Shown here: one piece after another, positions 775-22,862 of the stretch | Layout of the letters: every line of letters starts with the position of its first letter | Position numbering within the stretch: position 1 is the first letter of the stretch | Origin: an uncultured bacterium | GTDB taxonomy: Bacteria; Patescibacteriota; Minisyncoccia; Phycocordibacterales; UBA9973 | Reading direction: 5' to 3' | Length of the DNA stretch: 44,008 bases | Assembly (NCBI GenBank): GCA_903891365.1 | Contig: CAITEG010000004.1 | Location: forward strand, 1 to 44,008 | Notes under the pieces: model-generated | Told to the model about the DNA's origin: nothing | Seen by the model: the letters and a program-made list of their open reading frames with translations, nothing else | Databases searched by the model: none | Translations under genes and position numbers: made by a program

Positions 775-948
775 AGTCGTTCATATTATTTATTAATTTG
801 AAGTGCTGATGGCAGATGGTATCGGTGTTTCACCGATGCGTATACGCTCCTTATCCCTAGAAGACACCCATAATACCGACGCTCCTTGATCTTCTTCGCT
901 TTATCGGGCAGGCAAGGAATTGCTCAACCACCTGTAATCAACACTCCA

Positions 949-1194: not shown

Positions 1195-1275
1195 ATTTGT
1201 TGATTATAAAGAACATTAGTAAATGGAAAAGAAAATCTGCAAGCAGACCCACTACAAAACCTAGAGCAAAAAGAT

Positions 1276-1713: not shown

Positions 1714-1719
1714 AATTTT

Positions 1720-2507: not shown

Positions 2508-2689
2508 AGGAATAAATATTCTTCAAAGAATTTCATTGCTAACATTTCACAATTACCATCTCTCCCTCCTCCCCCCAAGACATAAGACAAATCAACTAAA
2601 GAAAGGAAGAGAACTACTAATATGAATATTGGTAGAAAGACTATTTTTATTAGTCCTTTGACAAAATAATAGATGTGTTTCATAATCAT
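2504..2689 (-). CDS. small membrane protein (61 aa)
   Basis: Hydrophobic stretch IVFLPIFILVVLFLSLV. It has a 4-nt overlap with the next gene. Its start context AAACTAAATGATTATGA is duplicated at 3043-3060. Confidence 0.4.
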   Translation of the reverse strand: MIMKHIYYFVKGLIKIVFLPIFILVVLFLSLVDLSYVLGGGGRDGNCEMLAMKFFEEYLFL

Positions 2690-2699
2690 TTAGTTTTTA

Positions 2700-2942
2700 T
2701 TATGATAAGAAATAGCACTCTCCTTTGTGTGCCAAAGAAGGCCAAGAAATAGCACTCTCCTTTGTGTTCCAAAGAAGGCCGCCACAAAGAGGACAACCAT
2801 TTGTAAACCACCAATTCCCAGACCAATGGAACATCATTTTTTCTAACCAAAAACGAGTTAAACACTTACCACAATAGACAGGTAGAAAAAGAAACTTCAA
2901 TTTATCTTTTTTAACATTATATGCTTTAAATTTAGTTCTCAT
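2700..2942 (-). CDS. Cys-rich, zinc-ribbon-like small protein (80 aa)
   Basis: CGKC ... CPLCGG pairs. The 3' end carries a 37-bp tandem duplication. Confidence 0.4.
   Translation of the reverse strand: MRTKFKAYNVKKDKLKFLFLPVYCGKCLTRFWLEKMMFHWSGNWWFTNGCPLCGGLLWNTKESAISWPSLAHKGECYFLS
2707..2780. repeat. 37-bp direct tandem duplication (2 copies, 1 mismatch)
   Basis: aagaaatagcactctcctttgtgtgccaaagaaggcc (2707-2743) is repeated at 2744-2780 with g2731 replaced by t. Confidence 0.9.
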
Positions 2943-2943
2943 A

Positions 2944-3051
2944 TTATTTTGAATAGATATTTTTTGCTAAATGCCATGCAGCTGAGATTACAAAGGTTAA
3001 AACAAACAATAATCCTATAAATGCAAAACAATCTAAAATTGTCATAATCAT
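2944..3051 (-). CDS. small membrane protein (35 aa, below the ORF-track cut-off)
   Basis: Own translation: MIMTILDCFAFIGLLFVLTFVISAAWHLAKNIYSK. Its ATG overlaps the upstream TGA stop as ATGA (3048-3051). Confidence 0.35.
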   Translation of the reverse strand: MIMTILDCFAFIGLLFVLTFVISAAWHLAKNIYSK

Positions 3052-3287
3052 TTAGTTTTATTAACTTTATTAAGTTTCTGAATACTGTCGTACTTGATCT
3101 GTCGCACTCGCTCTCTAGTCATCTTAAGTTCAACTGCTATCTCTTCTAGAGTGTGACGAGAATAAGATCCGAACCCATAGTATTTCTCTATGATCTCTTG
3201 TTCACGCTTATCAAGTACATTAAAGTTCTTGGTATAAATTGTCAATACCCTTTCCGCTGCTGTGATATTTTTTACTTCTTTTGCCAT
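3048..3287 (-). CDS. stand-alone sigma-70 region-4 (HTH) protein
   Basis: LDKREQEIIEKYYGFGSYSRHTLEEIAVELKMTRERVRQIKYDSIQKL matches the sigma-70 region 4.2 pattern (TLeEIa..l..TRERVRQI). No regions 1-3 are present. I prefer the ATG at 3285-3287 (MAKEV...). The track's longer form starts at a GTG at 3332 inside a hairpin arm. Confidence 0.65.
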   Translation of the reverse strand: MAKEVKNITAAERVLTIYTKNFNVLDKREQEIIEKYYGFGSYSRHTLEEIAVELKMTRERVRQIKYDSIQKLNKVNKTK

Positions 3288-3315
3288 AATTTTTAATAAT
3301 TTTTTATAATATCCG

Positions 3316-3359
3316 ACCTTCGATGTGACCACGAGTTACCGAATGGTCACATCGAAGGT
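3316..3359. promoter_or_regulatory. perfect 16-bp inverted repeat with a 12-nt loop
   Basis: accttcgatgtgacca (3316-3331) pairs with tggtcacatcgaaggt (3344-3359). It lies about 30 nt upstream of the sigma-like gene start. Confidence 0.7.
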
Positions 3360-3540
3360 AAGATGAACGATAATCTTACCTTCTTACCCTCTCGGGTTGT
3401 AAAATAGACTTATTGGGTTTCGGAGAAAAAATGAGCTATTAGCTCTCCCAATAAACCTTCCCGCGCTAATCCTCGTAAGCCACTGAGCCAACTTTGTTTA
3501 GTACCAAGTAAGACATGCCTGCTTACCCAGTACTATAGCC

Positions 3541-3569
3541 AGTGTATACCCCGGGGCTACCTTTGTCAA
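3541..3569 (-). promoter_or_regulatory. possible leftward sigma-70-type promoter
   Basis: The reverse complement of 3564-3569 is TTGACA. After a 17-bp spacer, the reverse complement of 3541-3546 is TACACT. Confidence 0.3.
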
Positions 3570-3573
3570 TACC

Positions 3574-3602
3574 TTGACAGGTTTCACGTTGCTAGCTATA
3601 AT
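3574..3602 (+). promoter_or_regulatory. consensus sigma-70-type promoter
   Basis: TTGACA (3574-3579), an exact 17-bp spacer, then TATAAT (3597-3602). It lies 51 nt upstream of the ATG at 3654. Confidence 0.7.
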
Positions 3603-3653
3603 GAATCCATTAACCAATGGAGGTTGATATTAATACAAGAATAAATTTATTTT

Positions 3654-3977
3654 ATGGCAGATAAAAACAATGAGCCAAAGGCTATTAAAGAAGGTTTACA
3701 AGACGGAGGCATCTATTGCACGCGGGATTTGTATCTAGCAGCTACACTGGTTACCCTCAAATTTTATATGGAGGGGATAGACTACCAAATCGAGGGCACG
3801 AAGAATAACCCTGTCGGTTACTTCAAGTTCACAGAGACACCTGAACTACGTGATGCACGACAGAAGTATCTACAAGGACTGATTCTTGTGGAACCACAAG
3901 ACTATGTTCAGAAGATGCACGCTTTAAAGGCGGAAGTCCAGAACATGTCAATGAACCCCCACAATAAAGTTGCTTAG
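3654..3977 (+). CDS. hypothetical protein (107 aa), possibly DUF5659-like
   Basis: It is the only plus-strand gene in the left arm and has its own consensus promoter. The pattern TRDLYLAATLV...GYFKF resembles my memory of the small phage-associated DUF5659 domain. This was not verified. Confidence 0.5.
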   Translation: MADKNNEPKAIKEGLQDGGIYCTRDLYLAATLVTLKFYMEGIDYQIEGTKNNPVGYFKFTETPELRDARQKYLQGLILVEPQDYVQKMHALKAEVQNMSMNPHNKVA

Positions 3978-6313: not shown

Positions 6314-6341
6314 GTTAAATTTGATTTAGGATTATTAATTG

Positions 6342-6369
6342 AGTATACCCCCACCACGGAGGTTGTCAA
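6342..6369 (-). promoter_or_regulatory. possible promoter of the primase gene
   Basis: The reverse complement of 6364-6369 is TTGACA. After a 16-bp spacer, the reverse complement of 6342-6347 is TATACT. It lies about 30 nt upstream of the ATG at 6313. Confidence 0.4.
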
Positions 6370-6479
6370 GAGTTGATTTGTCATAAAATTATGGTGTGCA
6401 ATGATTAAAACTCCCAATACATATCATAGCACACCATTGCATCGAAAAAATATGGCGTACCTTGGCCCTACTATCACTG

Positions 6480-6700
6480 GTGCAATCTATGCAACCTATA
6501 CTCTAATGAGTATTGTATAATTATATATATTTATTGTATATAGTATGTAGATAGCATCGTTGCACAGTAGCACGGGTTGCACTTTTGTGTTTTACGGCTT
6601 AGGTACGCCGTATAATCGTCTGCAACGGTCTTGCAACGATCGACGATTTTTGGAATCGTTGCACTTTGAAAAGGGCTGTTTTTACCCAAAAAGGTTCGAT
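6480..6700. other. candidate replication origin: AT-rich block plus TCGTTGCA iterons
   Basis: AT-rich run tattgtataattatatatatttattgtatatagtatgtag (about 6511-6550). It is followed by ATCGTTGCAC at about 6555 and 6655, inverted copies (tgcaacgg, ttgcaacgat) at about 6620-6640, and GTTGCAC at about 6575. gcaacgat / atcgttgc form an 8-bp palindrome pair. Confidence 0.4.
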
Positions 6701-6993
6701 CACCTTCAAAAGGGAGATCCCCGAAACCCTGAACTTTTCCGAAAATGGCAATTTTTAGAAAATCAGACCCCAACTTGAGCTGTGGAAGGAGCTCCAAAAG
6801 CCCCCAACTTTTCTTATTTGACCCTCCTTTTGAACTGGGGCCGGCAAATAAACAATCTACCCCTTGACTTTCCTTATAAATATCGTTTATTAAAAATATT
6901 TAAAACGTTTCAGTACCTTCTACATACATAGATTCCAAGATACCTAAACTCTGAACTTTTTAGATCTGACGTTACGAAGTAACTACAGCACAT

Positions 6994-7027
6994 GAAAAAA
7001 AGCCAGCGGGCAGTGGGCCAACTGGCT
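6994..7027 (-). terminator. rho-independent terminator (minus strand)
   Basis: Stem agccag (7001-7006) / ctggct (7022-7027). The A-run 6994-7000 on the plus strand gives a U-run on the minus-strand transcript. Confidence 0.5.
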
Positions 7028-7160
7028 TAGTTCATTACTGACGTTACTGACTCTCTTGATCTGAAGCGTTTTGTTCAGCCTCAGTTACAGCGAACTCTCT
7101 AGTTACGGTGCCATCTGGGTTGACGGTAATATTGAAGACTTCTCTTATTTCTGGTTCATC

Positions 7161-7415
7161 TTAATCATCGTCATTATCATGCTCGCAGAAACAGTCCTCT
7201 CTAAGTTCCGCACAATCTGGGCAGTAGCAATCACAGTCTTCTTCAGTTTTGCCACAGAGGGGGCAGATTATTACAGCGTCGTGAGGATGGACGTTCCTAA
7301 GGTTTGGTCTATCCTTCAAGCCCCAAGTTGTCTGACGCAGACAGAAAGGTAGTGTTTCTTCTTTAGAGGGTTCACCCCATAGATACTTAGAGCCACGTTT
7401 CTTACGTTTAGCCAT
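7161..7415 (-). CDS. Cys-rich small protein (84 aa)
   Basis: CPLCGKTEEDCDCYCPDCAELREDCFCEH with an acidic tail. It is the last gene of the coupled operon and has an 8-nt overlap with the upstream ORF. Confidence 0.5.
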   Translation of the reverse strand: MAKRKKRGSKYLWGEPSKEETLPFCLRQTTWGLKDRPNLRNVHPHDAVIICPLCGKTEEDCDCYCPDCAELREDCFCEHDNDDD

Positions 7416-7908
7416 GGTGATCGATGTTAACTTGATTAAATGTTCTAATAGCTTCAGTGGCCACTTCAGAACTTATGGCAACTGGATCGGTCCGATGACT
7501 GGATATTGGATCTACAACTCTTAGGTTGAATACTTCAGAATTATCTGTGGGTTCAATATAGATCAGGCGTTGTCTGAATAGACCAGGAGCCTTCAAGATA
7601 ATAGGGCGTACACCGTGGAGCATGCTCATGGCGATCCACTCGACACCATTGAGCTTATAGAACGTGTCACTTAGGACAGTTCTAATGTGGCCTATCCTTC
7701 CTACGGGACCAGCGAGCTCTTGCTTAGTGTTATGTTTGAGACACTTAAGAATAACACCAGCGGCAGTGCGAGGGCGTAAGCCAACCTTGACTACTATCCA
7801 ACTATCTTGTCTAATAGTTACACGATAGTGGCCACCTTGTGGTGTGACGGTGATTGTGCGACTACCCGCTTTGAAGATAGTGGCTTGACTAACAGGTGTT
7901 TGTTCCAT
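7408..7908 (-). CDS. hypothetical protein (166 aa)
   Basis: ORF track. The ATG is at 7906-7908. It overlaps the upstream ORF by 90 nt, and I saw no alternative ATG. Confidence 0.5.
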   Translation of the reverse strand: MEQTPVSQATIFKAGSRTITVTPQGGHYRVTIRQDSWIVVKVGLRPRTAAGVILKCLKHNTKQELAGPVGRIGHIRTVLSDTFYKLNGVEWIAMSMLHGVRPIILKAPGLFRQRLIYIEPTDNSEVFNLRVVDPISSHRTDPVAISSEVATEAIRTFNQVNIDHHG

Positions 7909-8312
7909 ACAAGTTTGTTATAGTCCTTTCGGAATCTAAGTTGATAAAGCCAGACAGACCATCGACAGGCTGTCAGTTCATCAGGACCGAAGAGATGATG
8001 AGCGAGTTCATGGAAGAGGCTTATAATTGAGCCATCCTTTACGAAGATAAAGTAATCGAATTCACCGACTACATATCTTGTTGGTTCTCCTTCCTTTACG
8101 TAGACTGGTTGGGCGTTATATGCATCAGTGATGATATTTACTAATGCTTGCTGGCAGAATCTTTGGTCTATTCTATTGGGCCAATTTCTGTAGCATCTTC
8201 GTTTCCAGTCACTTATTCTTGTCATTAGACCAATTGGATATATTGGTCTTGGTTCTGCCAAGATTTGCTTCTTAGTCGGATATTTACTTGTATCCCGGGT
8301 CATCGTCGTCAT
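7818..8312 (-). CDS. putative zinc metallopeptidase-like protein (HExxH)
   Basis: FHELAHHLFGPDE contains HExxH and resembles the ImmA/IrrE or SprT-type motif. The start is uncertain: ATGs at 8330, 8312 and 8303, and the track uses a GTG at 8378. Confidence 0.45.
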   Translation of the reverse strand: MTTMTRDTSKYPTKKQILAEPRPIYPIGLMTRISDWKRRCYRNWPNRIDQRFCQQALVNIITDAYNAQPVYVKEGEPTRYVVGEFDYFIFVKDGSIISLFHELAHHLFGPDELTACRWSVWLYQLRFRKDYNKLVWNKHLLVKPLSSKRVVAQSPSHHKVATIV

Positions 8313-10239
8313 AATCCATTTCGTCAGCATAAGCCGGCGAGAGTTTAGCTGCCTTGACAATATGGGCAAGTGTTTCACAACGGGAGCGAAACTTATCCAT
8401 TTCAGTCTTGATGTTATTGATGTGCCATCCTATCTGAAGAGGAAGCCCTTCCTCAGCAGCAATATTAACAACCTTCCTTAGATATTCATCAACACGCATC
8501 TCGGTGGCATTCAGAATTGTGGAACCAACTCCTTCAGCTTCTTCTAGGATTTCGAATGGATCTTTATCATCTCCAGTGTTACTTAGTGCTTCTAGCATTA
8601 ACTCCGCTTCTCCTTCAAGTACGTCTACTGGAGTTTGAACACTAGACACTTCTGTAAATTCAGCGTCGGTGATACGTTCATCATCTCTACCCATGGCTGC
8701 ATCAGCCAGAGCCCGAACTCCCTGAGGCTTATTAATCCTTTCTAGAATAGTTAGTGCATAGGAATCGTTCTTAACTACGGCACCAGCTGGTTTGCTTGGG
8801 AAGGCTTCTTCGATATCCTTGTCGAAGTTTTCGGATATCGCATCATTATTTTCATTGTCACATATTTCTGCATCAGTCTTTGGGTTTGTGAATGCTGCAG
8901 CCAAAGCTAGAACAACTTCACAATAAGTGCAGAATTGAAACACTGGCACATATGCCCCAGCGATCTCGCTCATTCTTACATTAGTGAGCTCCCGCCCCAC
9001 CTTGTCAATATCGTCGAAAGTCTTCCATTTCGAGAGATCAAACTTTTTTTCTTCGAGAGCTTCTTCTAGACATTCATCATAAGATACTTCTTGGGTGACT
9101 AGGCCTATACCTTCTACGAAGAGTTCATTTGCTCTCTTAAGATCTCCCATGCTTATGGCTAGATTGAAATCCTTAATAATTCCTTTCCCTTCTAGGGTTT
9201 CAATAGCTGCATGGTCATTAGAGTCAGTGAATACTTTACCTAGTGGCCCACTCATCATTTGATGAACGATGTGGGACTGAGATACGAATTTATATTCGTC
9301 TTCTGTTTTAGATTTATCTCCTCTATTTGGTAATAGCCACATATTTTTTTCTTTGTTCCACTCGTATCCGGCATCCGTCATTCCTTTCTTTAGATCTGCA
9401 TCAGACACCTTGTTTCTATTGGTTCCAAAGCCTATGCTTCTACCACTATAAGACTCCTGTTTAGCTGGCGGTTCAGGAGTATATTTCATCGTGATAGTCT
9501 TCTTGAGTTTAGTGAACGTTACTAGACCGCCTTCTTTATAGACAGCTTCTAGAACTACCACTTCATCTTTCTCTAATGGTTGACCTAGAGTTTCCTCAGA
9601 AGCGAAAGCCCAGCCAGAGTTAGACTCCCAGATTTTCATACCTGCATATCCATTTGTGCCTAGTAGGATTTGATGGATCTTATCATCTTTTGTTCTAGAT
9701 ATTGCCCAGAAGGTGAATCCTCCTTTGGCACCAATATCAGGAATCTTGCCTTCGAAGAATCTAGCTAGTTCAATAGCGATGGCTTCACTATCATTGAACT
9801 TCATGGTATAACTGGCGCTGTTAGCTGCCCAAGCTTTTCTATATTCTGTTTCATATAGATAGCCAGCTTTCTCGTGAACAGCCTTCAATTCCTCATCATT
9901 ACTGATCACACCATTGTGAGCGATGAGCCATTTATATGTCAACTCTTCATTCTCTATTGCCATTGGATGAGTTTGGCTCATTAGATTATCTGAAGAAGTT
10001 GGCATTCGATGATGGAATAATATGTGACGAGATTGAGGGTCAGTATACATGTCATGAAACATCTTTGCTGCCTCAGTTGCACGATCTACACTTACAATTC
10101 CTTTATCATCTATTTTTACTATACCGAACCCACGAGTACCTCTTCCTTGTTGGTCTTCAAATTGATTTACAACATAGTCGATAGCGCGAGCAGGCGGTAT
10201 CTTTTTGTCTTTACTTACCCATCCGATTAGTCCACACAT
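8284..10239 (-). CDS. class-II (Ntn) glutamine amidotransferase domain fused to an ~400-aa acidic uncharacterised C-terminal region
   Basis: Begins MCGLIGW (catalytic Cys2). Also has RGTRGFGIV, LFHHRMPTSS and AHNGVISN, typical of GATase class II. The remainder has no recognised motif. Confidence 0.7.
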   Translation of the reverse strand: MCGLIGWVSKDKKIPPARAIDYVVNQFEDQQGRGTRGFGIVKIDDKGIVSVDRATEAAKMFHDMYTDPQSRHILFHHRMPTSSDNLMSQTHPMAIENEELTYKWLIAHNGVISNDEELKAVHEKAGYLYETEYRKAWAANSASYTMKFNDSEAIAIELARFFEGKIPDIGAKGGFTFWAISRTKDDKIHQILLGTNGYAGMKIWESNSGWAFASEETLGQPLEKDEVVVLEAVYKEGGLVTFTKLKKTITMKYTPEPPAKQESYSGRSIGFGTNRNKVSDADLKKGMTDAGYEWNKEKNMWLLPNRGDKSKTEDEYKFVSQSHIVHQMMSGPLGKVFTDSNDHAAIETLEGKGIIKDFNLAISMGDLKRANELFVEGIGLVTQEVSYDECLEEALEEKKFDLSKWKTFDDIDKVGRELTNVRMSEIAGAYVPVFQFCTYCEVVLALAAAFTNPKTDAEICDNENNDAISENFDKDIEEAFPSKPAGAVVKNDSYALTILERINKPQGVRALADAAMGRDDERITDAEFTEVSSVQTPVDVLEGEAELMLEALSNTGDDKDPFEILEEAEGVGSTILNATEMRVDEYLRKVVNIAAEEGLPLQIGWHINNIKTEMDKFRSRCETLAHIVKAAKLSPAYADEMDYDDDDPGYK

Positions 10240-10241
10240 AT

Positions 10242-12140
10242 TTAGAATGACGCTTGCGCGTTGTTATGATTAATTGTTCCAATAAGATATGATCTTGCTA
10301 CTGGAGATAATGAGTGGGTGATTCGTCCATTGGATGTATCGCTTAAATATTCTACAAGTTCTCTAGCAACTTCTTCTCGTGCTGCTTGGTCTACATTCCA
10401 ATTCCATCGATCATTATTCTGCATGAGTATAATTATTTTCACGAATGGTGATCCAGAATATGGGGCCATTGCTCTTGATAGATCTCTAATTACACCACTG
10501 ATAGCAGAATCAATAGAGTAGCTTCCAGGATTAGTTTCCATTTCAGCTTGTACAGCATCATTGCTTAGTTGTCTAGGATTGTCAGCTCTAGATTCAGCTC
10601 TCTCTAGTCCTACCTCCATCTCTTCTTCTTTCTTCATAGATTCAAGAAGAGGACTTGGTCCAGGGGATAGAGTTGCTGAGTCTAATGGAATGAATGTTTT
10701 AGGAGACTTTTCAAACTTAAGCACAAGTCTGATTAGGGGCTTAATATCTCCTTTTCTTCTCATTTCATATGGAAGACCAATCATTACTCTTCGGTTATCC
10801 TTGGAGCTGATTAATTTTCCAGTACGAGCATTTAACACTCGACCATACATAGGAACAGCTTCATTTTTGTTTCCTATTCGATCAAACTTACTTGACAAGA
10901 GAGAGAAATCTTCTATTGTGGTTATTATTTCATGACCCGCAATAAAGAGTCCATTTTCATCTCTCATTACAAGAGCGTTCAGACCTTTCTTAAGACCGAA
11001 GAGATAATATTCATGCTGTGGTTTCCATCCAAGCGCGATACACCTCTTAGATAATGCTGTGGCAAATTGTTCAACATTCAGGTCTTCATTCCAAGCGAAC
11101 TGACTCATGTTTCTGATTACTGATTCAGGGAATTTAGAAGTCTTTTCTTCGATCTCTTCATCTTTAAAGAAGGATGTTATAGGGATCTTGGCAGATCCTT
11201 GTGTGAAACCCCAACCTTCATTAATAGAATAATGGGCTTTTACTTTCTCTTCCATTACTCTAGATGGAGACATTATAAGTTCAAGTTCTGCTTTATATTC
11301 AGGATAAGCAGGATGAGCTCGTACGAAGGGACGAATTTTGTCCAGATAAGATTTCTGAATGTTCACATAATTATCTAGAAGAAATGGAAGATACTCCTTC
11401 GCTTGTTTCCGGCTTCTGAACAAGACTGGCCCGACAGGTTTCAAGTTGCCCTTGAGAATGCTGTCCCAACAGATTGCCATATAAGCCAACGTCCCGAGAG
11501 CAATCTTTTCTGTGGTTACCCACTCAGCTCCTGGAGCTCGAACTTCAAGAGTGAATCCATCAGCACCGCTAGGGAATTTGAATCTCGGAGTGTCTATTCT
11601 GAAATCGAATAGCTCACCATAGTGGCCAGATTGGAATCCCTTTCTCAATTGACTTGACAGTTTGTTTTCTCCCATCATAATTAGAATGATGAAAGTTCCT
11701 ACAGCTCGTTCAATAGCTGCCCATTTTTCAGTTTTATTACGCCACATCTGATTGAAGTCTTCTGGAATGGCGAGATGGATATGACCACCAGCACTTGCAG
11801 CAATGGTGAGGGTGGACATGTCTACGAATGGAATCTTATCGGCAGCTTGTTTGAATAGAGATTTCATATTAGCCACAACTTCTCGTGGTGTGCCTGGATC
11901 TGGTCTAAGCTCACCAGTAGCATTATGACCATCCCAACCAATATCTCCTCCAGGAAATGCAAATCCAGCAGGTGTCTTTGCTTCTCCTTTGAAGAAAGTT
12001 GTGAAGATCTCTATTGCACTAATTGGTCGAGAGCCACTCACTACAGTGAACTCAGGGTCAGCGCCCACTTTGAATGGGAATTCATAAGCGGGTTTAACTT
12101 TTGGTTCTTCTACCACAGGCTCAACTGTTGTTTCAGTCAT
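10242..12140 (-). CDS. glutamine-synthetase-fold carboxylate-amine ligase (amidoligase), paralog A, with an ~300-aa C-terminal extension
   Basis: VGADPEF, GELRPDPG, SAGGHIHLA and LEVRAPG match the acidic/His/Arg motif series of the GS/GCS2-fold amidoligases. All four are shared with the next gene. Confidence 0.6.
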   Translation of the reverse strand: MTETTVEPVVEEPKVKPAYEFPFKVGADPEFTVVSGSRPISAIEIFTTFFKGEAKTPAGFAFPGGDIGWDGHNATGELRPDPGTPREVVANMKSLFKQAADKIPFVDMSTLTIAASAGGHIHLAIPEDFNQMWRNKTEKWAAIERAVGTFIILIMMGENKLSSQLRKGFQSGHYGELFDFRIDTPRFKFPSGADGFTLEVRAPGAEWVTTEKIALGTLAYMAICWDSILKGNLKPVGPVLFRSRKQAKEYLPFLLDNYVNIQKSYLDKIRPFVRAHPAYPEYKAELELIMSPSRVMEEKVKAHYSINEGWGFTQGSAKIPITSFFKDEEIEEKTSKFPESVIRNMSQFAWNEDLNVEQFATALSKRCIALGWKPQHEYYLFGLKKGLNALVMRDENGLFIAGHEIITTIEDFSLLSSKFDRIGNKNEAVPMYGRVLNARTGKLISSKDNRRVMIGLPYEMRRKGDIKPLIRLVLKFEKSPKTFIPLDSATLSPGPSPLLESMKKEEEMEVGLERAESRADNPRQLSNDAVQAEMETNPGSYSIDSAISGVIRDLSRAMAPYSGSPFVKIIILMQNNDRWNWNVDQAAREEVARELVEYLSDTSNGRITHSLSPVARSYLIGTINHNNAQASF

Positions 12141-13186
12141 GATTTACGTTCTAGATAAGCTTCAAAACCTTTATCTTCATAGGTGAAACGATAGTTCGAC
12201 CAGTGCTTAAGAGGATCACCTCTGAATGATTTCTTAATACCTTTCTCAATAAACTTTTCAAATGCTGGCATACTTCTGTCGTTCAAACTGTGTCCAGTGA
12301 AATTAGGACACCATTTTATAATGATTGGTTTGATTCTATTGAAGTTAGCCAGCGCTAGGTTAAAGTCATTGTTATTAATTGCGTGAACGATTTCGAGTTC
12401 ATTCACGGCTGCCATCAATTCTTTGCCTGCTTTCTTATTCTCTGCAAAGCCGAGACCTTGGCGACATAGTCCCATAACCATACTCATGAGTGTATAGTTT
12501 TTCAACCAGAAGTTGCCTAGAACTCTATATTCAATACCATGAGGTTGAATACGATATTCTCCTGCGCGCCCATAATACTTTCGTCTCTCGATTTCTCCTT
12601 CATCACGATCGAGAAGTACACAAGTGTTACCAACGATAATATCCAGGATCTTTACAATCTTTTCAGCTTCTTTACCATCTTTAAGCATGTTTATTACACA
12701 TTGTTCTGATGATCCAGGAGATGTTCCTAGATGGATATGACCACCGGCACTTCGATAAAGATATTTACTGGCGTCTGGAAGCTGGGGATAGTTTCCATAT
12801 GCATTTAAGCTAGGAGAACATCCAAAGCGTTTGCTATCTGGACTTAGAGAATCCATTTCCTTTTTGGTTACTTTAACCAAAACATTCCAATTGATGGTGA
12901 TACGTTTACCAGCTATTTGTCTTTGGACTCCTTGGAATAGTTCATGGATTCTATAAGAGAAACTTTGACGACAGCGATTGAAGTATGGATTCAGCTCTGC
13001 TTGAATACCATCTATAATCAATTTACCTCCAGATGTATTTATTCCTTCTTTGGGGAGGATTTTTTCTGCACCTATGATTGAACTTGGATTACCCACTAAG
13101 TTCTTTCTTGCGAAAAAGAACTCAGGATCAGCTCCCCAAGTTGGATGCAGATATTTAATTGTGGGTTTGATTTCTGTTTCTGGCAT
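12137..13186 (-). CDS. glutamine-synthetase-fold carboxylate-amine ligase (amidoligase), paralog B
   Basis: WGADPEF, IQAELNP, SAGGHIHLG and IEYRVLGN. It has an ATGA overlap with paralog A (12137-12140). The start at 13186 (MPETEIKP) was chosen by analogy with paralog A (MTETTVEP). The track uses a TTG at 13234. Confidence 0.6.
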   Translation of the reverse strand: MPETEIKPTIKYLHPTWGADPEFFFARKNLVGNPSSIIGAEKILPKEGINTSGGKLIIDGIQAELNPYFNRCRQSFSYRIHELFQGVQRQIAGKRITINWNVLVKVTKKEMDSLSPDSKRFGCSPSLNAYGNYPQLPDASKYLYRSAGGHIHLGTSPGSSEQCVINMLKDGKEAEKIVKILDIIVGNTCVLLDRDEGEIERRKYYGRAGEYRIQPHGIEYRVLGNFWLKNYTLMSMVMGLCRQGLGFAENKKAGKELMAAVNELEIVHAINNNDFNLALANFNRIKPIIIKWCPNFTGHSLNDRSMPAFEKFIEKGIKKSFRGDPLKHWSNYRFTYEDKGFEAYLERKS

Positions 13187-13373
13187 GTTTAATAATAAAA
13201 CCCCATCATGAAGCGACATCTGGAAACGGGGCAATACATTGCAGGTTATTCTTTACTGGTGAATAACAACCAGTTATACAGTTCTGCTTACCTCTTAGTT
13301 AGGCGAGGATATTGTGGATAGCCATTTCCATGTGTCGCCCCACAATGGGGCAACGAATAAATGACTCAGTAGG

Positions 13374-13910
13374 TTAAACTACGTCGTCTGGCGCACTGGC
13401 GGTCTCTTCAATGATCTTCTGAGAAAGACTCTTGAGAGCGTCCTTATCAACTTTCAATTCACCGGTCTTAGCCTTGTCAAGGTTATCAAGAGCACGAGCG
13501 AGCTCATCTTGTGTATCTTTGATATCCTTACCTGCCTCTTCAAGCATACTGGCTAGAGTTTTTGCTGCTTCTTTGTTTTCCTCAGCATCTTCTTTGTCCT
13601 GTTCCTTATACTTATCCTCTAGAGATGCTGATGCAGCAGCAATGTCATCCGCGCTGATACCTGGGACGTTGCCGAGAGCTTGACGCATTGCGTCACGGTG
13701 GGCATCTGACTTGACTTTAGCTTCAGCAATCTCAGTTGCCTCTTCAGCTGCGTCAACGATGACCTTTGAATAATGGCGAATAGCAGTGGCTACGTTCTTC
13801 TTTGCCTCTGTTACACGCTCTTGGATGCGGACAATCATTTGTGCACGTAGAATGTCTCGCGCTTTCTCCTTTGCTGCAGTTGCGACTGAAGCGTAATCAA
13901 TTGTACTCAT
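13374..13910 (-). CDS. hypothetical Ala/Lys/Glu-rich coiled-coil protein (178 aa)
   Basis: ORF track. The composition is typical of a long helix or coiled coil. Confidence 0.5.
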   Translation of the reverse strand: MSTIDYASVATAAKEKARDILRAQMIVRIQERVTEAKKNVATAIRHYSKVIVDAAEEATEIAEAKVKSDAHRDAMRQALGNVPGISADDIAAASASLEDKYKEQDKEDAEENKEAAKTLASMLEEAGKDIKDTQDELARALDNLDKAKTGELKVDKDALKSLSQKIIEETASAPDDVV

Positions 13911-14212
13911 AAATAAAAAATATATGTTAGATTAATAGTGGCGCACAAATCTTAGGAATTCTCTTTATTATATTCCTAAAATCGACGTTTGTCTAGGCTA
14001 TTGCTAATTAAGCACTATCTTGTTATGATAAGTGCTTGGGCAGGGTCAGGTAGAAGGATTGTGGAGGTTTTGTCTTTGAGACATTATGAAAGAACATTGC
14101 TCTCAAATGCGAGCAGCATCTCCTATCCTAACCCCACCCAAACACTAATCGTTTAATGTTTGGGAATTATTCAGGCTTTTGGGAAAATTATATAAAAACC
14201 AAAAACCCAAAA
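13911..14212 (-). other. ORF-free, hairpin-dense leader or candidate ncRNA
   Basis: No ORF longer than 16 codons on the minus strand. Four perfect 7-8-bp stems read on the minus strand: ttttggg/cccaaaa, cccaaaca/tgtttggg, aagcact/agtgctt, ttaggaat/attcctaa. Confidence 0.35.
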
Positions 14213-14223
14213 ATAGAGTCGTA
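14213..14223 (-). promoter_or_regulatory. TACGACTCTAT motif, copy 1
   Basis: Plus strand atagagtcgta, which reads TACGACTCTAT on the minus strand. It lies 10 nt downstream of the stop at 14233. Confidence 0.45.
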
Positions 14224-14232
14224 ACAAAACAA

Positions 14233-14571
14233 CTAACACCACTCTTTTTGATACCAGTTTTTTTTCTTTCCGAACTTCTTGAACTTTCTGTTGTTCACAG
14301 ACCATACCCACATGTGTAGAATGTTTCCACTGTTTGGATTGAGTCTTGGTCTCATTCTGTGTGTTACACCAAGATCGTTTCTTTTTATGTAATTAGCCAA
14401 TCTTTTTCCTGCCTTTTCTGTGTTTGTACAAGAGAAGATAAGAAAAGCTCTTGGCGTGTCATCAAACCAATCTTGGCAAATGTCTTTTAGAATGCGGTCA
14501 GGAAGATATCCTGAGATGCGATCTATTTCTTTAATTCCACAGCACTCAACACCATCATTAATGTGTGACAT
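14233..14571 (-). CDS. hypothetical protein (112 aa)
   Basis: ORF track. No motif recognised. Confidence 0.5.
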   Translation of the reverse strand: MSHINDGVECCGIKEIDRISGYLPDRILKDICQDWFDDTPRAFLIFSCTNTEKAGKRLANYIKRNDLGVTHRMRPRLNPNSGNILHMWVWSVNNRKFKKFGKKKNWYQKEWC

Positions 14572-14710
14572 ATATTAAGCCATATCTTCTACGTGGGAAG
14601 ATTTCATAGTTCTTCATTTAAGTTTGGATAAATAATGTCTTCTTCTTCTGACAAGTCTGCTGTATCTATGGGATCGCATTCGTCATAGATCTCATTGATA
14701 TAATCGTCTT

Positions 14711-14932
14711 TTATAACGATAGGTTAGCTCTTAGTAGCAGAGTGCGGGCTTCATCGACTAATATTTTAAGGGCTATTTCGTCGTATTTACTACCACTCTC
14801 GTCATCATAGTCTGTTATATCTGCTTTTGATTGCCACGAAGCGATTTCTAGTTTTAGAACTGTGTTTTTCCCGAATACATAGTTTATAAACCTACTTATA
14901 ACGGTAATCGGACTATAAGAATAGTTAATCAT
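14711..14932 (-). CDS. hypothetical protein (73 aa from the internal ATG)
   Basis: The ATG at 14930-14932 overlaps the upstream TGA as ATGA. The longer track ORF would overlap the upstream gene by 90 nt. Confidence 0.45.
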   Translation of the reverse strand: MINYSYSPITVISRFINYVFGKNTVLKLEIASWQSKADITDYDDESGSKYDEIALKILVDEARTLLLRANLSL

Positions 14933-15198
14933 ACCATCAACGTTACATATCCGTGCGCTACTTTGCGCGCGAAGTTGCCAACAATAGCTTTCTCGACCAT
15001 GTCTAGCTTTGCACTGCACGTTGCTTTTCGTTGTCCTGAGTACACATTAAGAAAGACCACACGTCTAAGTGCGGGATTATATGGTCTGATGCTTAGTGTA
15101 TATCTAGTGCCCAGTTCGAGTTTGTCTCTTTGTTCTACTACTACGTCACCAGCTGATATTGTCAGCGGTTCGTTCTTTCTTAGATTAAGCATAATCAT
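14929..15198 (-). CDS. hypothetical protein (89 aa)
   Basis: ORF track. Motif copy 2 lies about 40 nt upstream. Confidence 0.5.
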   Translation of the reverse strand: MIMLNLRKNEPLTISAGDVVVEQRDKLELGTRYTLSIRPYNPALRRVVFLNVYSGQRKATCSAKLDMVEKAIVGNFARKVAHGYVTLMV

Positions 15199-15238
15199 AA
15201 GATTATTAATAATGAGGGAACTAAAGCTCCCTCACAAA

Positions 15239-15249
15239 ATAGAGTCGTA
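15239..15249 (-). promoter_or_regulatory. TACGACTCTAT motif, copy 2
   Basis: atagagtcgta on the plus strand. It is followed on the minus strand by the hairpin tgaggga (15213-15219) / tccctca (15228-15234). Confidence 0.5.
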
Positions 15250-15274
15250 GACTACGTCTCACCTCACCACAGCA

Positions 15275-15303
15275 CAAAAAGAAAGCCAGCATCTCTGCTG
15301 GCT
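15275..15303 (-). terminator. rho-independent terminator (minus strand)
   Basis: 8-bp stem agccagca (15284-15291) / tgctggct (15296-15303) with loop tctc. The A-rich run 15275-15283 gives a U-tract on the minus transcript. It follows the stop at 15368. Confidence 0.65.
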
Positions 15304-15367
15304 TCTCTTCGCGTAGTATCAAACTGCGTCTTAAGACTTGCGTAGCATTAAGCTGCGACTTAGTGGC

Positions 15368-15625
15368 TTAAGCAGCCACTTCTACGAATGCTCTGAGATC
15401 TGCATCCTTCTTTCCTTCTCTTTTGATATTCGGATAGAGGATTACGCGATCTCCAGGGCTAAGAGTTACGTTACCAGGAGAGTTACGTCCACTATCAATC
15501 GATAGTGTGAGAAACTCCGTGCCTGGAGCTTTGCTATTAGCGCCTGTTACATTCTTCCACGCTCGACCTACCGGTACGAGCTTGGTGGCTGGCTTTGTGG
15601 CCGCGCCGTTCTGTGTTGTTGCCAT
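15368..15625 (-). CDS. hypothetical protein (85 aa), weakly DUF736-like
   Basis: VGRAWKNVTGANSKAPGTEFLTLSIDS resembles my recollection of the DUF736 core (GAAWKK..K.G..YLSVKLD). It is the first gene of the leftward arm. Confidence 0.45.
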   Translation of the reverse strand: MATTQNGAATKPATKLVPVGRAWKNVTGANSKAPGTEFLTLSIDSGRNSPGNVTLSPGDRVILYPNIKREGKKDADLRAFVEVAA

Positions 15626-15709
15626 ACGATGTTATCGTTTAGCGAATAAGGTAGCTAGCTGAAGCGCTAGCAAGACTGAGAGGCATCTCCTAAGATATAC
15701 CTCTCATAT

Positions 15710-15720
15710 ATAGAGTCGTA
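15710..15720 (-). promoter_or_regulatory. TACGACTCTAT motif, copy 3
   Basis: atagagtcgta on the plus strand. It lies about 85 nt upstream of the ATG at 15625 and is followed on the minus strand by the tgagagg/cctctca 7-bp stem. Confidence 0.5.
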
Positions 15721-15771
15721 ATGTATTAGGGAACCATGTCCTCATATAATCATCTACGCTTCTATACATAT

Positions 15772-15782
15772 ACAGAGTCGTA
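15772..15782 (-). promoter_or_regulatory. TACGACTCTGT motif, copy 4 (one substitution)
   Basis: acagagtcgta on the plus strand, 62 nt from copy 3 and in the same orientation. Confidence 0.4.
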
Positions 15783-15979
15783 CTCCTTCAGAAAGACACT
15801 AGGGGGGAGTAGTCACTTCACCTCCTTGCCAGATTGAACCTCCTCTCCTGGTACTGTAACCGCGTCCAGATTTGTAAAAATCTCTATCACTCGCCCACGA
15901 AATGACGAAATGAAGTACCTCCCCTACTTTTATACAACTCAATGGGTACCCTAAAATTTTTTTTCAAATTTTTGACATC

Positions 15980-16008
15980 TTGACAGTCCTTCTAATCGCG
16001 CGTAATAT
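15980..16008 (+). promoter_or_regulatory. sigma-70-type promoter giving a leaderless mRNA
   Basis: TTGACA (15980-15985), a 17-bp spacer, TAATAT (16003-16008), 6 nt, then the ATG at 16015. A second TTGACA lies at 15972-15977. Confidence 0.6.
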
Positions 16009-16014
16009 GAAACT

Positions 16015-16818
16015 ATGATCAAAAAGAAACTAGTGGCTAAGCCTGCTAAGCCTAAGGCGAAGCTTAAGCCTAAGGCGAAGCTTAAGCCTAAAGCGAAGCT
16101 TAAGCCTAAGGCGAAGCTTAAGCCTAAGGCGAAGCCTAAGTCTAAGGCGAAGCTTAAGCCTAAGGCGAAGCCTAAGTCTAAAAAGTCTGAGGTCCTCCTC
16201 AATATTGGTTGCGGCATCACCCTCTTTAAAGACTTCATCAATATTGACAAGTACTTTACAGAAGAGCAACTTCGTCAGGGGGCAACGTCTCACACAGGAC
16301 CATGTGCCAACGCTCTCTACCCGCGCGGAGCATCCTTCCTTCAGGCAGACATGCTAGACTTGCCTATAGACGCAAACTCTGTAGACTATATTGAGTCGAT
16401 GGAAGCCCTGGAGCACCTAAAGTTTTGTGACGTAGAAAAAGCTGTAGCCGAAATGTACCGGGTACTAAAACCTGGAGGCAAACTTGTCTTGTTTATTCCC
16501 GACATGGATGATATGTGTCAAGTCTGGACAGAGAGGATCGGTAGTGGGGCACCCTTCGGGCCGGAGGACTTCTTTCAGATGGTTCAGATGTTTTATGGGA
16601 ATCAAAAACATGACGGCGAATATCACAAGTCTTGTTTCAACGAAACCTACATGGGTCTGATGATGCAGGCAATAGGATTCGAAGCGAGGAATATTAGGAT
16701 AGCCCACTGCAGTCATGGTCAGCAGGTACCCAAGATCCGAGGAGCGTCAGCATCCCCCGCGTGGGACAGCAAAGCTGTGCTCATTATAGGGTTCCTACTT
16801 ATAGAGGCCACTAAGTAG
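16015..16818 (+). CDS. class I SAM-dependent methyltransferase with an N-terminal (KPKAKL)n lysine-rich repeat tail
   Basis: Residues 8-57 are KPAKPKAKLKPKAKLKPKAKL...KPKSKK. These are followed by SAM motif I LLNIGCG, then VDYIESMEALEHL and YRVLKPGGKLVLFIP (Methyltransf_11/23-like). No DPPY/NPPY or PCQ DNA-methyltransferase motif was seen. Confidence 0.75.
   Translation: MIKKKLVAKPAKPKAKLKPKAKLKPKAKLKPKAKLKPKAKPKSKAKLKPKAKPKSKKSEVLLNIGCGITLFKDFINIDKYFTEEQLRQGATSHTGPCANALYPRGASFLQADMLDLPIDANSVDYIESMEALEHLKFCDVEKAVAEMYRVLKPGGKLVLFIPDMDDMCQVWTERIGSGAPFGPEDFFQMVQMFYGNQKHDGEYHKSCFNETYMGLMMQAIGFEARNIRIAHCSHGQQVPKIRGASASPAWDSKAVLIIGFLLIEATK
16036..16180 (+). repeat. 18-bp tandem repeat aagcctaaggcgaagctt (about 7 units, degenerate at the ends)
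   Basis: Near-perfect (single-mismatch) units at 16048-16065, 16066-16083, 16084-16101 and 16102-16119. Variant units extend to about 16178. The repeat is in frame and encodes KPKAKL. Confidence 0.9.
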
Positions 16819-16840
16819 GCTCAGTGGCTTGCCGCAGGCT

Positions 16841-17467
16841 ATGACACTCACAACACTCAAATATTTGATGTGGTTTTTAAACGCCTATAGCGACGAGATA
16901 AAGCCAGAGGCTCGCATCGCTGATTATGGTGGAATAGATAATCCTGACACAGTGATTTTTCCCCAGGTTGTTAAGAAAAGTTTGGCAGGTGCGGGCCGAC
17001 TTAATTATCACGCTCTGGATTTTGATAGTGGGGTAGATCTGCGCAAACCCTTACGGGGTCCTAAGTATGACGTTGGTATTTGTATGGATCTGCTTGAGCA
17101 TTGTAGTGATCCCTTTCTTGTGGCACATAATATTCGAGATAGTCTACGGCACAACGCGCTGCTTTTTGTAACCGCACCATTCATATGGGATCCTCATTTT
17201 TTCCCAAAGGACTATTGGCGTTTCACACCGCAGGGGATTGAAGAGCTTTTTAGTGCCGAAGGTGATCCGAAAGCTATGGATGTCCTCGCTCTAGGTATGG
17301 TTCGTGATCCTAACAAGGGAGAATTTTTACAACTTTGTCGCGTAGTTGCAGTCTTTCGAAAAGCAAAAAAGAAAGATCGAAAACGAGATGATGCGGCTCG
17401 TTCTATCTTTCCTCCAGAGTGGGGAGTAAGAGGGTTTGACAAGACAACATTTGGCATGGTACCATAA
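16841..17467 (+). CDS. methyltransferase-fold protein with a degenerate SAM motif I
   Basis: ARIADYGG (degenerate GxGxG), YDVGICMDLLEHCSDP and NALLFVTAPF follow the layout of class I methyltransferases. The ATG is at 16841. The track uses a TTG at 16829. Confidence 0.5.
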   Translation: MTLTTLKYLMWFLNAYSDEIKPEARIADYGGIDNPDTVIFPQVVKKSLAGAGRLNYHALDFDSGVDLRKPLRGPKYDVGICMDLLEHCSDPFLVAHNIRDSLRHNALLFVTAPFIWDPHFFPKDYWRFTPQGIEELFSAEGDPKAMDVLALGMVRDPNKGEFLQLCRVVAVFRKAKKKDRKRDDAARSIFPPEWGVRGFDKTTFGMVP

Positions 17468-18469: not shown

Positions 18470-18540
18470 TTGACTTATAAAAGTCACTCAATAAATTGAG
18501 TTGACTTATAAAAGTCACTCAATAAATTGAGTTGACTTAT
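18470..18540 (+). repeat. 31-bp tandem repeat, 2 full copies plus a 9-nt partial copy
   Basis: ttgacttataaaagtcactcaataaattgag occurs at 18470-18500 and 18501-18531, then ttgacttat at 18532-18540. Each unit contains the palindromes gactt-ataa-aagtc and ctcaa-taaa-ttgag. Confidence 0.9.
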
Positions 18541-18560
18541 TTGACACTAGGTAGTATCAT
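18532..18560 (+). promoter_or_regulatory. sigma-70-type promoter of the secreted-protein gene
   Basis: TTGACT (18532-18537), a 17-bp spacer, then TATCAT (18555-18560). The -35 is the last partial copy of the 31-bp repeat. Confidence 0.45.
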
Positions 18561-22409: not shown

Positions 22410-22862
22410 ATGAAACCTAAAATAACAATCATAGATGTAGACGGAACGGTCGCCAAAATCGACCATCGTCTTTATCTTATAAAAAAGACTCCTAAGGATT
22501 GGGCAGCCTTTTATGGTGAGTCGTACAAAGATGAACCTCTTGTTGAAAATATGGCAATGATTAAAGAACATCTTTCTTCAACAGAATCTATTCCATTTTT
22601 TGTGACTGGACGTTCTGATGTTGCAAGAGAAAGAACACACTCTTGGTTGAAGGAACATTTTGATGAAGTTCCTCCAGAGCGTCTCTTTATGCGCAAAGAA
22701 GGTGATACAAGAGAAGACTTTGTTGTTAAAAAAGAAATTCATGACAATCACTTGACGGAATATGAAATAATTCGCGTGTATGAAGACCGTCCTCAAGTTA
22801 TTAGAATGTGGCAGGATCTTGGTTATGAAGTGATCGATGTTGGTCCAGGGTACGAGTTTTAG
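22410..22862 (+). CDS. HAD-superfamily phosphatase (Pnk-phosphatase / nucleotidase-like)
   Basis: KITIIDVDGTVA (DxDGT motif I), FFVTGRSD (motif II), VKKEI and VYEDRPQVIRMW (motifs III/IV). The ATG at 22410 follows the previous gene's stop. The track's longer form overlaps that gene. Confidence 0.7.
   Translation: MKPKITIIDVDGTVAKIDHRLYLIKKTPKDWAAFYGESYKDEPLVENMAMIKEHLSSTESIPFFVTGRSDVARERTHSWLKEHFDEVPPERLFMRKEGDTREDFVVKKEIHDNHLTEYEIIRVYEDRPQVIRMWQDLGYEVIDVGPGYEF

Follow-up and report, generated by a model that had tools for sequence, protein, structure and literature searches.

A 16-nt DNA signal, summarised as TACGACTC-N6-TG, occurs four times in the 44,008-nt stretch analysed here (contig CAITEG010000004.1, hereafter the window), which is part of a larger phage genome and open at both ends. 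From the motif, its conservation in diverged relatives, its placement and its register with RNA structure, we infer that these sites are phage-specific promoters, and assign this a probability of about 0.8. The original prediction, made from the window sequence alone, had likewise proposed that the early leftward genes have phage-specific promoters, of a type other than the TTGACA-17-TATAAT promoters used elsewhere. Conservation, intergenic placement on a single strand, upstream terminators and the fixed RNA-structure register all support that proposal. Motif positions are numbered throughout from T1, the first base, to G16; the transcript is predicted to start at T15/G16.

Four intergenic copies on one strand

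In forward-strand letters, TACGACTCTAT is found at 14213-14223, 15239-15249 and 15710-15720, and TACGACTCTGT at 15772-15782. Read on the minus strand, these are four copies of TACGACTCTRT, all in that orientation and all intergenic. Chance would give 0.01 copies, and four or more were seen in none of 100 dinucleotide-preserving shuffles. The four-copy minus-strand intergenic motif is confirmed at the coordinates first reported. When two or fewer mismatches were allowed, the window held 19 matches vs. 17.4 expected, no excess over chance. Two copies lie in the divergent control region (15626-16014), one between the genes for the 85-aa and 89-aa proteins, and another 10 nt past the stop codon of the gene for the 112-aa protein; we refer to them as P1 to P4 (Table 1).

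The earlier count, which placed the motif only between genes, stands for the 11-mer but not for the bare 8-mer core. Two extra minus-strand copies of TACGACTC lie within rightward genes, at 22518-22525 and 39151-39158, a number at the level of chance (~1.3 expected, from 88,016 positions on both strands divided by 4^8). Both fall outside the 12 best hits of the position matrix described below and thus score less than 6.4 bits, vs. 20.9-26.5 bits for the four intergenic copies. In the literature, the motif string was found only as primer typos.

Conservation in diverged relatives

Relatives were reached through homologues of the neighbouring 365-aa ligase gene, with identities of 48-58 %. These gave five syntenic lineages (L040, L041/L042, L043, L044 and L191), with protein identities of 41-58 %. 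Each shares one layout, in which methyltransferase and AAA genes on one side are followed by a divergent control region and small early genes, and then by a gene for a 172-178-aa protein, the ligases, the primase-polymerase and the gene for a sigma-70 region-4 protein. The five relatives contain 4, 5, 5, 4 and 4 copies of TACGACTC (one L040 copy with a single mismatch), all between genes and all on the early-gene strand. Their opposite strands are without an exact core, bar one coding-region copy in L191. The flanking intergenic DNA has diverged between lineages while the core has been kept, and because both core and placement persist in five diverged syntenic relatives, the sites are best explained as phage-specific promoters.

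Together with the window, six lineages provide 26 sites, and TACGACTC is invariant in 25 of them. Their consensus is TACGACTC-(T/G)AT-n-T-(A/T/G), with TG at positions 15-16 and a G/A-rich run after it. This TG is in register at 20 of the 26 sites and off by one base in most others. A position matrix trained only on the relatives' sites, with the window excluded from training, ranked the four window copies first (20.9-26.5 bits), while the next hit scored 12.8 and the shuffled maximum was 16.7. The same matrix found no copy in the other ~42 kb of this phage outside the window (L017 and L067; L035 repeats part of L067). Per genome, the motif copies span 1.6-6.7 kb.

Beyond these lineages the motif is lost from view. 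Megablast of 13000-17000 against 50,697 phage records returned no match, and hence no cultured relative, and tblastn with the capsid and primase-polymerase proteins returned distant hits only, with identities of 35 % or less. Relatives in IMG/VR identified by way of their capsid protein or AAA ATPase (L001-L013 and L025-L033) are more distant, not syntenic in this region and free of the motif. Nor is there a copy in a ligase-bearing phage that is more distant and has another replication module. Two further candidates, L192 and L193, proved to be unrelated phages. A search of IMG/VR and GTDB genomes with the signature ACTCCCCC-N18-24-TACGACTC returned only chance single hits, and the host was not found in this way. 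The motif-bearing phages form an uncultured podovirus-like group of ~78-100 kb from freshwater and groundwater, with a SU10/phiEco32-type capsid module, a NrS-1-type primase-polymerase and thymidine-modification-type ligases as group traits.

Placement relative to genes, terminators and other promoters

At eight of the 26 sites, the motif stands 9-30 nt past a strong intrinsic terminator (dG -11.5 to -17.3, T5-T7). The divergent control region of every lineage holds a tandem pair of copies, spaced by 58-105 nt, and in all six lineages the first of these lies 20-28 nt past a conserved (GTGAC)yAC(T)CCCC block. Where a copy is directly ahead of a gene, the start codon is 41-95 nt downstream. The conserved non-coding block upstream of P1 has equivalents at ~7090-7185 in L040 and also in L041, L043, L044 and L191; it may bind a regulator or form another RNA element.

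Upstream of T1 no position is conserved across the 26 sites, so there is no -35 element; this space is often taken up by the T-run of a terminator or by G/C-rich sequence. Across positions 9-14, the obligatory A and T of a sigma-70 -10 element are missing at several sites. Ordinary TTGACA-type promoters are found ahead of the sigma region-4 gene, the primase-polymerase gene, the methyltransferase arm, the gene for the 178-aa protein and the virion genes. Because these serve the other genes, the motif appears to define a separate, small promoter class.

Three conventional assignments of the motif were tried and rejected. Reading TACGAC as a -35 element, TATnTw as a -10 element and TG as an extended -10 is ruled out by the spacing and the missing obligatory bases. 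A reading of the ECF type, with CGAC as the -10 element, is allowed by the geometry, but there is no conserved -35 element (AAC). If NTG at positions 14-16 were a leaderless start codon, the frames would close within a few codons, as at P2.

5' hairpins and the predicted transcript start

Three of the window copies are followed by stem-loops, those of P2 and P3 and a third at 14174-14208 behind P4, while P1 has no significant hairpin. The P2 hairpin has a dG of -18 when 50 nt are folded, which includes a small second stem, and of -16.3 over 42 nt. The original prediction had described three 7-bp stems beginning 2-5 nt downstream of the motif. The stems are real; however, they are longer and stronger than 7 bp and begin 0-4 nt past the 11-mer, which corresponds to motif positions 15-16.

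Across all lineages, pairing starts from positions 15-18 at 12 of the 26 sites; it is strong (dG -9 or below) at about six and missing elsewhere. A hairpin is thus not part of the motif. The register is most regular at the copy equivalent to P2, where pairing begins at positions 15-18 in six of six lineages with stem sequences that are unrelated to each other; compared with shuffles, the hairpin stands out clearly in four lineages and less so in L040 and L041. Since TG is conserved, 5' pairing begins at 15-18 and the closing helix of a leader RNA (see below) begins at T15, transcripts are predicted to start at T15/G16.

A stem-loop at the very 5' terminus, with almost no unpaired leader, stabilises mRNA, as in the T7 phi10 and ompA leaders. 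A hairpin from position 15 or 16 would be the 5' end of the RNA and would lie outside the DNA signal, most likely as an mRNA-stabilising stem-loop, or else as the closing helix of a leader RNA.

A structured leader RNA downstream of P4

The predicted transcript from P4 begins with a structured non-coding leader of three parts. The first is a lineage-specific insertion of 60 nt between the motif and the closing helix; it holds the hairpin at 14174-14208, and the ttttggg/cccaaaa stem of the original prediction lies within it. A possible second hairpin at 14137-14164, part of which lies in the insertion, overlaps a strand of the closing helix, so that the two would be mutually exclusive. The second part is a conserved 22-bp closing helix, in which 14127-14148 pairs with 14029-14050. 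The third is an alternative, terminator-like hairpin at 14006-14037, which has its AAGCAC strand in common with the closing helix.

Counterparts of ~100-170 nt are present in all five relatives (L040 9170-9276, L041 9022-9187, L043 7990-8145, L044 7735-7868 and L191 9081-9200). The 5' strand of the closing helix starts at T15 in L040, L041 and L191; in L044 it starts one base further on. In an alignment of the six sequences, 89 % of cells are paired and nine pairs have changed on both sides. Only 0-1 of 500 shuffles were as good, and when the partners were slid against each other pairing fell to 33-52 %. The 3' strand of the closing helix (AAGCAC...) can alternatively pair with a downstream GTGCTT, with T-rich sequence after it. 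By its predicted folds, the leader resembles a terminator/antiterminator arrangement such as an attenuator or riboswitch. It is followed by the sigma-70-type promoter of the gene for the 178-aa protein itself. Rfam has no family match within 13500-16500.

Other open reading frame (ORF)-free stretches in these genomes carry related signals. L043 (2955-3518, and from 3353) and L044 (3702-4935, with the site at 3937) have further motif copies at the head of ORF-free stretches, 0.6-1.2 kb long, one of them paralogous to the G-rich leader. A second shared start, TGTAGGTTTCGTAGTTTCTT, hints at more non-coding transcripts from promoters of this class. In the window, a 360-nt ORF-free region on the minus strand (6798-7160), after a strong terminator, holds TTGGAATCTATGTATGTAGAAGG near 6938. 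This fits the 3' half of the motif (CTATGTATGTAG), not its core, and could be either a degenerate copy or another signal.

Search for the polymerase or factor that reads the motif

The assembled pieces of the phage sum to ~78 kb, in agreement with the 78.3-kb contig of one relative, and our scans cover ~75 kb of this; ~5.6 kb after the tail genes, at the right end of the longest scaffold, lies outside them. Among called genes and main ORFs over these ~75 kb, and over 15-40 kb in each relative, precomputed and scanned Pfam matches include no polymerase domain. In six-frame translations (ORFs of at least 150-200 aa), T7 motifs A, B and C and DxDGD are absent, as is any conserved DxDxD or Rx3Kx7YG. 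These Pfam and motif scans bear out the earlier observation that the window has no gene for a single-subunit RNA polymerase. They also make it unlikely that the recogniser is such an enzyme encoded outside the window, as had been suggested.

Two large proteins of the rightward arm were considered in this light. The 1065-aa protein has ~300 homologue clusters, and a profile search matches nothing in the PDB. Its AlphaFold model is all-helical (pTM 0.71), with no Foldseek hit below E = 0.38 in a library that includes T7, N4 and crAss-type polymerases; as modelled, its fold resembles that of no polymerase of known structure. The 1005-aa protein, a secreted repeat protein, carries a peptidoglycan-binding domain.

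The sigma region-4-only ORF at 3048-3287 was recognised earlier and is confirmed by Pfam (Sigma70_r4, E = 1.4e-12). The protein (73-94 aa; in relatives at L040 19324-19545 and L043 20760-21026) is conserved beside the primase-polymerase and contains an invariant TRERxRQIK helix, the -35-reading helix of primary sigma factors; the gene has a 5' leader of ~230 nt. The original prediction had suggested that this protein might redirect the host polymerase to the motif. It is a poor candidate and, judged from the sites, an unlikely reader, because nothing is conserved at -35 and a terminator fills that space at eight sites. It may instead act on promoters with perfect TTGACA boxes and weak -10 elements, of which the phage has many.

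A partner with sigma region 2 was not found in lenient Pfam scans of the small leftward ORFs, which a very divergent factor could escape. The 196-aa neighbour of the sigma region-4 gene was rejected as such a partner, having a PD-(D/E)xK-type nuclease-like motif. The conserved 178-aa protein, helical and rich in Ala, Glu and Lys, is likewise unsupported as a sigma factor.

Which enzyme reads the sites

Our favoured reading, which we hold to be evenly balanced between right and wrong, is that the host core RNA polymerase reads the sites with a specificity factor other than the housekeeping sigma. Two points favour the host core: nearly the whole genome yielded no polymerase, and the transcription units end at canonical hairpin-plus-U terminators. 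In addition, phages related through the capsid module use a phage sigma with a single promoter element (PMC12276001). The factor could be encoded by the phage, delivered with the virion, or be an alternative sigma of the host. With the predicted +1 at G16, the element spans -15 to -7. The invariant A5 would then be at -11 and T9 at -7, where T is present at 17 of the 26 sites, consistent with a single-element -10-type logic without a -35. The P1/P2 tandem would drive the gene for the 85-aa protein. P3, just past the terminator of the first unit, would drive the group of genes for the 89-, 73- and 112-aa proteins, and P4 the attenuator-like leader ahead of the gene for the 178-aa protein. The rest of the genome, including the replication and virion genes, would use ordinary TTGACA-type promoters.

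Several points weigh against the host core. No sigma-2-like or other candidate specificity factor was found, and the region-4-only protein has nothing to bind. G at -12 and C at -10 have no parallel in well-studied -10 elements, and the start site itself is placed by RNA-structure register only. The core is identical in eight of eight bases to T7 promoter positions -14 to -7, for which we estimate a probability of ~5e-4 (a random 8-mer against any T7, T3 or SP6 promoter window). T at the positions matching T7 -4 and -2, together with the G-rich start, also points to a T7-type enzyme, and the ~5.6 kb at the right end could hold one. The very divergent polymerases gp64 and gp96 of phage P23-45 escaped earlier sequence searches (PMC10770324).

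The main alternative, which we regard as possible but clearly less probable, is therefore that a phage-encoded RNA polymerase reads the sites and transcribes only the earliest gene cluster, as in N4 or P23-45. It could be a T7/N4-type enzyme outside the scanned part, or a cryptic one among the hypothetical proteins, possibly delivered with the virion. The layouts of the two promoters are close (TACGACTC-ACTATA-G in T7, TACGACTC-N6-TG here), the initial sequence is G/A-rich, the 5' hairpin resembles the T7 phi10 leader, and the motif has neither a -35 nor a canonical -10 element. A cluster of 4-5 copies, with sigma-70-type promoters elsewhere, is an arrangement seen with N4 early and P23-45 pre-early promoters, and knowledge of the conserved early-gene motif in P23-45 preceded recognition of the cryptic polymerases of that phage (PMC10770324). 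However, no polymerase domain or motif was found over the ~75 kb or the relatives' loci, the 1065-aa protein has neither the profile nor the fold of a polymerase, the 1005-aa protein is a secreted repeat protein, and no AT-rich element is conserved at the equivalent of T7 -17 to -15. We keep this alternative because an exact T7 core is hard to call coincidence, and because of the P23-45 precedent.

It is unlikely that the motif acts in RNA, as the site of an endoribonuclease or RNA-binding regulator that makes or protects early 5' ends. Being on the transcribed strand, the motif would occur in any read-through RNA. The structures that begin 14-17 nt past its first base could equally be due to cleavage at a defined point, and a weak sigma-70-like promoter may overlap the palindrome upstream of P1. 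That candidate promoter, however, is poorly conserved at its key -7 position. Eight sites stand right after strong terminators, so little RNA would arrive there; tandem copies fit promoters, not processing sites; and hairpins are weak or absent at most sites. The original prediction had left open 'regulatory/processing sites', and given the upstream terminators and tandem copies, processing is left as a minor alternative only.

It is very improbable that the motif is a DNA site with no part in transcription, whether as an origin or primer site of the NrS-1-type primase-polymerase, as a repressor operator, or in recombination or packaging. The phage does encode a NrS-1-like primase-polymerase, a family that primes at specific template sequences, but the sites of NrS-1 are TTTGGTTA and GTGA/GTGG, which are short, flexible and not this motif (PMC8718748). 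The copies are linked to gene or RNA starts and to terminators, have one orientation and are not palindromic, unlike iterons, operators or pac/cos sites, and a purely DNA-level role would leave their register with RNA structure unexplained. Repeated motifs between variable small genes can be recombination points, as in the T4 PeSLs (PMC4122927); here recombination would be a by-product of promoter repeats rather than an alternative function.

Least probable of all is a nut-like antitermination site, in which a boxA-like element (CGACTCT is loosely similar; cf. CGCTCTTA) and a boxB-like hairpin would load a factor onto the host polymerase for passage through the early-operon terminators: the early operon does contain terminators and a hairpin follows three window copies, but the 4-5 copies per genome follow terminators instead of preceding the first one, the stems differ, with loops of 4-16 nt and no hairpin at most sites, so that there is no common boxB, and one 'hairpin' is the closing helix of the ~100-170-nt leader RNA.

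Genome context of the motif-bearing phage

Near-identical contigs from several lake metagenomes extend the window sequence in both directions. The leftward arm (1-15625, minus strand) encodes a SNF2 helicase cut by the window edge, small ORFs, the sigma-70 region-4-only protein, a NrS-1-type primase-polymerase fused to a VapE-like helicase domain, an amidotransferase-like protein, two phiEco32-type COOH-NH2 ligases and the small genes beside the motif copies. The rightward arm (from 16015, plus strand) encodes two methyltransferases, an AAA ATPase, the 1005-aa and 1065-aa proteins, a terminase, a SU10/P22-type portal and a SU10-type capsid protein. The leftward extension of ~20 kb (L035, L067) adds exonucleases, SprT, GroES/GroEL and a class II ribonucleotide reductase, among others, and the rightward extension, ~9 kb past the window end (L017), adds tail genes. 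The content of small early ORFs varies, from 5 genes in the window phage to ~20 in L041. The features of the early region and the sigma region-4 gene are collected in Table 1.

Table 1. Positions in the window of the motif copies and of features associated with them.
Feature	Position	Strand	Remarks
Conserved non-coding block upstream of P1	15802..15896	-	GGGCGAGTGAT, palindrome rGTACnGTACy, two GAGGAGGT repeats, GTGACyACTCCCCC
P1, distal tandem copy, TACGACTCTGTATATG	15767..15782	-	T1 = 15782, G16 = 15767; without 5' hairpin; 20.9 bits
P2, gene-proximal tandem copy, TACGACTCTATATATG	15705..15720	-	26.5 bits, top hit in the window; start codon of 85-aa gene 95 nt on
P2 5' hairpin, TGAGAGGTAT...ATGCCTCTCA	15677..15706	-	starts at motif position 15
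First leftward gene, 85 aa	15368..15625	-	no family hit; predicted product of P1/P2
Intrinsic terminator, GAAGCCAGC-agag-GCTGGCTTT + T-run	15276..15305	-	dG -16.5, T5; closes first transcription unit; 26 nt upstream of P3
P3, TACGACTCTATTTTGTG	15233..15249	-	TG shifted by one base; 21.2 bits; 89-aa gene 51 nt on
P3 5' hairpin, 10 bp	15212..15235	-	starts at motif position 15; z = -5.9
Three small early genes (89, 73, 112 aa)	14233..15198	-	no family hit; downstream of P3
P4, TACGACTCTATTTTTG	14208..14223	-	24.1 bits; 10 nt past stop of 112-aa gene; heads 313-nt ORF-free stretch
Structured non-coding leader RNA	14006..14208	-	predicted P4 start; three parts; ORF-free; ~200 nt in window
Sigma-70-type promoter of 178-aa gene, TAGACA-17-TATAAT	13967..13995	-	after leader RNA; TTGACA-17-TAnnAT in relatives
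178-aa helical protein	13374..13910	-	in all six lineages; downstream of leader RNA
Sigma-70 region-4-only protein	3048..3287	-	Pfam Sigma70_r4 E = 1.4e-12; own sigma-70-type promoter 3569-3541

Further observations concern other parts of these genomes. The SNF2 helicase (1-774, minus strand), which continues in L016 (7254-9161) and L035, contains an intein in some strains, which probably explains the assembly breaks at the left edge. The pair of ligase-like proteins and the amidotransferase-like protein (8284-13234, minus strand) are kept in all relatives. The presence of this set points to hypermodification of bases in the phage DNA, with a possible effect on promoter recognition.

On the plus strand, 18470-18560 holds a perfect tandem duplication of the 31-mer TTGACTTATAAAAGTCACTCAATAAATTGAG followed by a third promoter, TTGACT-17-TATCAT, so that three promoter-like units are stacked ahead of the gene for the 1005-aa protein. 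The N-terminus of the first methyltransferase (16029-16199, plus strand) is encoded by about eight tandem 18-nt repeats of a lysine-rich (AKLKPK) type, and resembles the basic tail of DNA-binding proteins. In a 100.7-kb relative (L070, JBFOMT010000382.1), the leftward arm has 27 tRNA genes at 5000-8000, with one more at 11048-11119. This array, which is accompanied by a tmRNA (tag peptide ADLQKDLVYVA) and lies beside RtcB, is absent from the window phage.

Significance

Unusual transcription machinery has repeatedly come to light first through a phage-specific promoter motif, as in N4, AR9/phiKZ and P23-45. The sites described here would constitute a new class of promoter, belonging to an uncultured phage group and of the same kind as known phage-specific promoters. 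The motif is defined at base resolution in six diverged lineages and has the same core as biotechnology's most widely used promoter, and no cognate reader is visible. It is a tentative proposition, one we would not yet back, that the reader is a cryptic RNA polymerase or a new promoter-specificity factor for the host core, which would make this a T7-core-like promoter without a T7-like polymerase. Similarly speculative is the joint claim that such a reader has converged on, or is distantly related to, the T7-type recognition of TACGACTC and serves a small 'pre-early' regulon that includes an attenuator-like RNA.

What reads TACGACTC in these phages is a testable question, and the answer could be a new factor or polymerase and possibly an orthogonal expression part. 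The motif also delimits a small early-gene regulon and a new structured leader RNA, both targets for functional work. Should an ordinary T7-like enzyme sit in the remaining 5.6 kb, the motif would be a routine new member of a known promoter family.

Comparison with known systems

The sites differ from a housekeeping sigma-70 promoter in having no -35 element and no hexamer at consistent spacing with the obligatory bases. Nor do they match lambdoid nut sites, which have a boxB with a conserved loop and stand between an early promoter and the first terminator; here the hairpins vary and the copies follow terminators.

The T7-group class III promoter is TAATACGACTCACTATAGGGAGA. The resemblance to it that was originally pointed out is real: the 8-base core TACGACTC is the same in all eight bases and covers the T7 specificity region CGACTC (-12 to -7), T is found at the equivalents of T7 -4 and -2, and the start is G-rich. 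In both, six mostly A/T-rich bases are followed by a G start, which is predicted here, and a purine-rich initial sequence. Both are compact single blocks that have no -35 and are able to follow a terminator, and some of their transcripts (predicted ones here) start with a stem-loop. In contrast to T7, the sites here have no conserved AT-rich upstream element (T7 -17 to -15, read by the AT-rich recognition loop), and the conserved G is one base farther, with TG 7-8 nt after the core vs. G at 6 nt. The 4-5 copies form one early cluster, whereas those of T7 are spread over middle and late genes, and no T7-like polymerase gene (PF00940) was found in the part of the genome scanned. The window phage itself, with its SU10/phiEco32-type capsid and primase-polymerase replication, is unrelated to the Autographiviridae.

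Single-element promoters read by phage sigma factors are a second point of comparison. The T4 gp55 promoter element is TATAAATA. The sigma factor gp36 of phiEco32 uses a single-element promoter, AATGTA, centred at -11.5 (PMC12276001). As in these two systems, the motif would be one short element ~7 nt upstream of the (here predicted) start, without a -35, in a phage that otherwise relies on the host polymerase and sigma-70-type promoters. The window phage also has its capsid, portal and adaptor families and its COOH-NH2 ligase family in common with phiEco32/SU10. The element sequences, however, are unrelated; the sites here precede a few early genes rather than middle and late genes, and the phage has a region-4-only protein, with no protein containing sigma region 2 found.

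N4 early promoters are DNA hairpins with a 5-7-bp stem and a 3-nt loop, served by a giant virion polymerase. Like these and the pre-early/early promoters of P23-45, the motif copies would be a few special promoters clustered ahead of small early genes, with the remainder of the genome transcribed otherwise. The N4 case differs in that the 16 nt conserved here contain no inverted repeat. No giant virion protein or DxDxD-bearing protein was found. For P23-45, it was a conserved motif that first hinted at polymerases whose sequences hardly resemble known ones (PMC10770324).

In their arrangement, the sites resemble the PeSL cassettes of T4-type phages, which are composite units of a terminator and an early promoter (PMC2839356, PMC4122927). 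In both, modules of a terminator stem-loop and a promoter (8 of the 26 sites here) stand between small early ORFs of varying content, where the repeats could serve as recombination points. PeSL promoters are sigma-70 early promoters, whereas those described here are not, and here only the promoter is conserved while the terminators differ. The motif cassettes are an analogue of PeSLs and not a member of that class.

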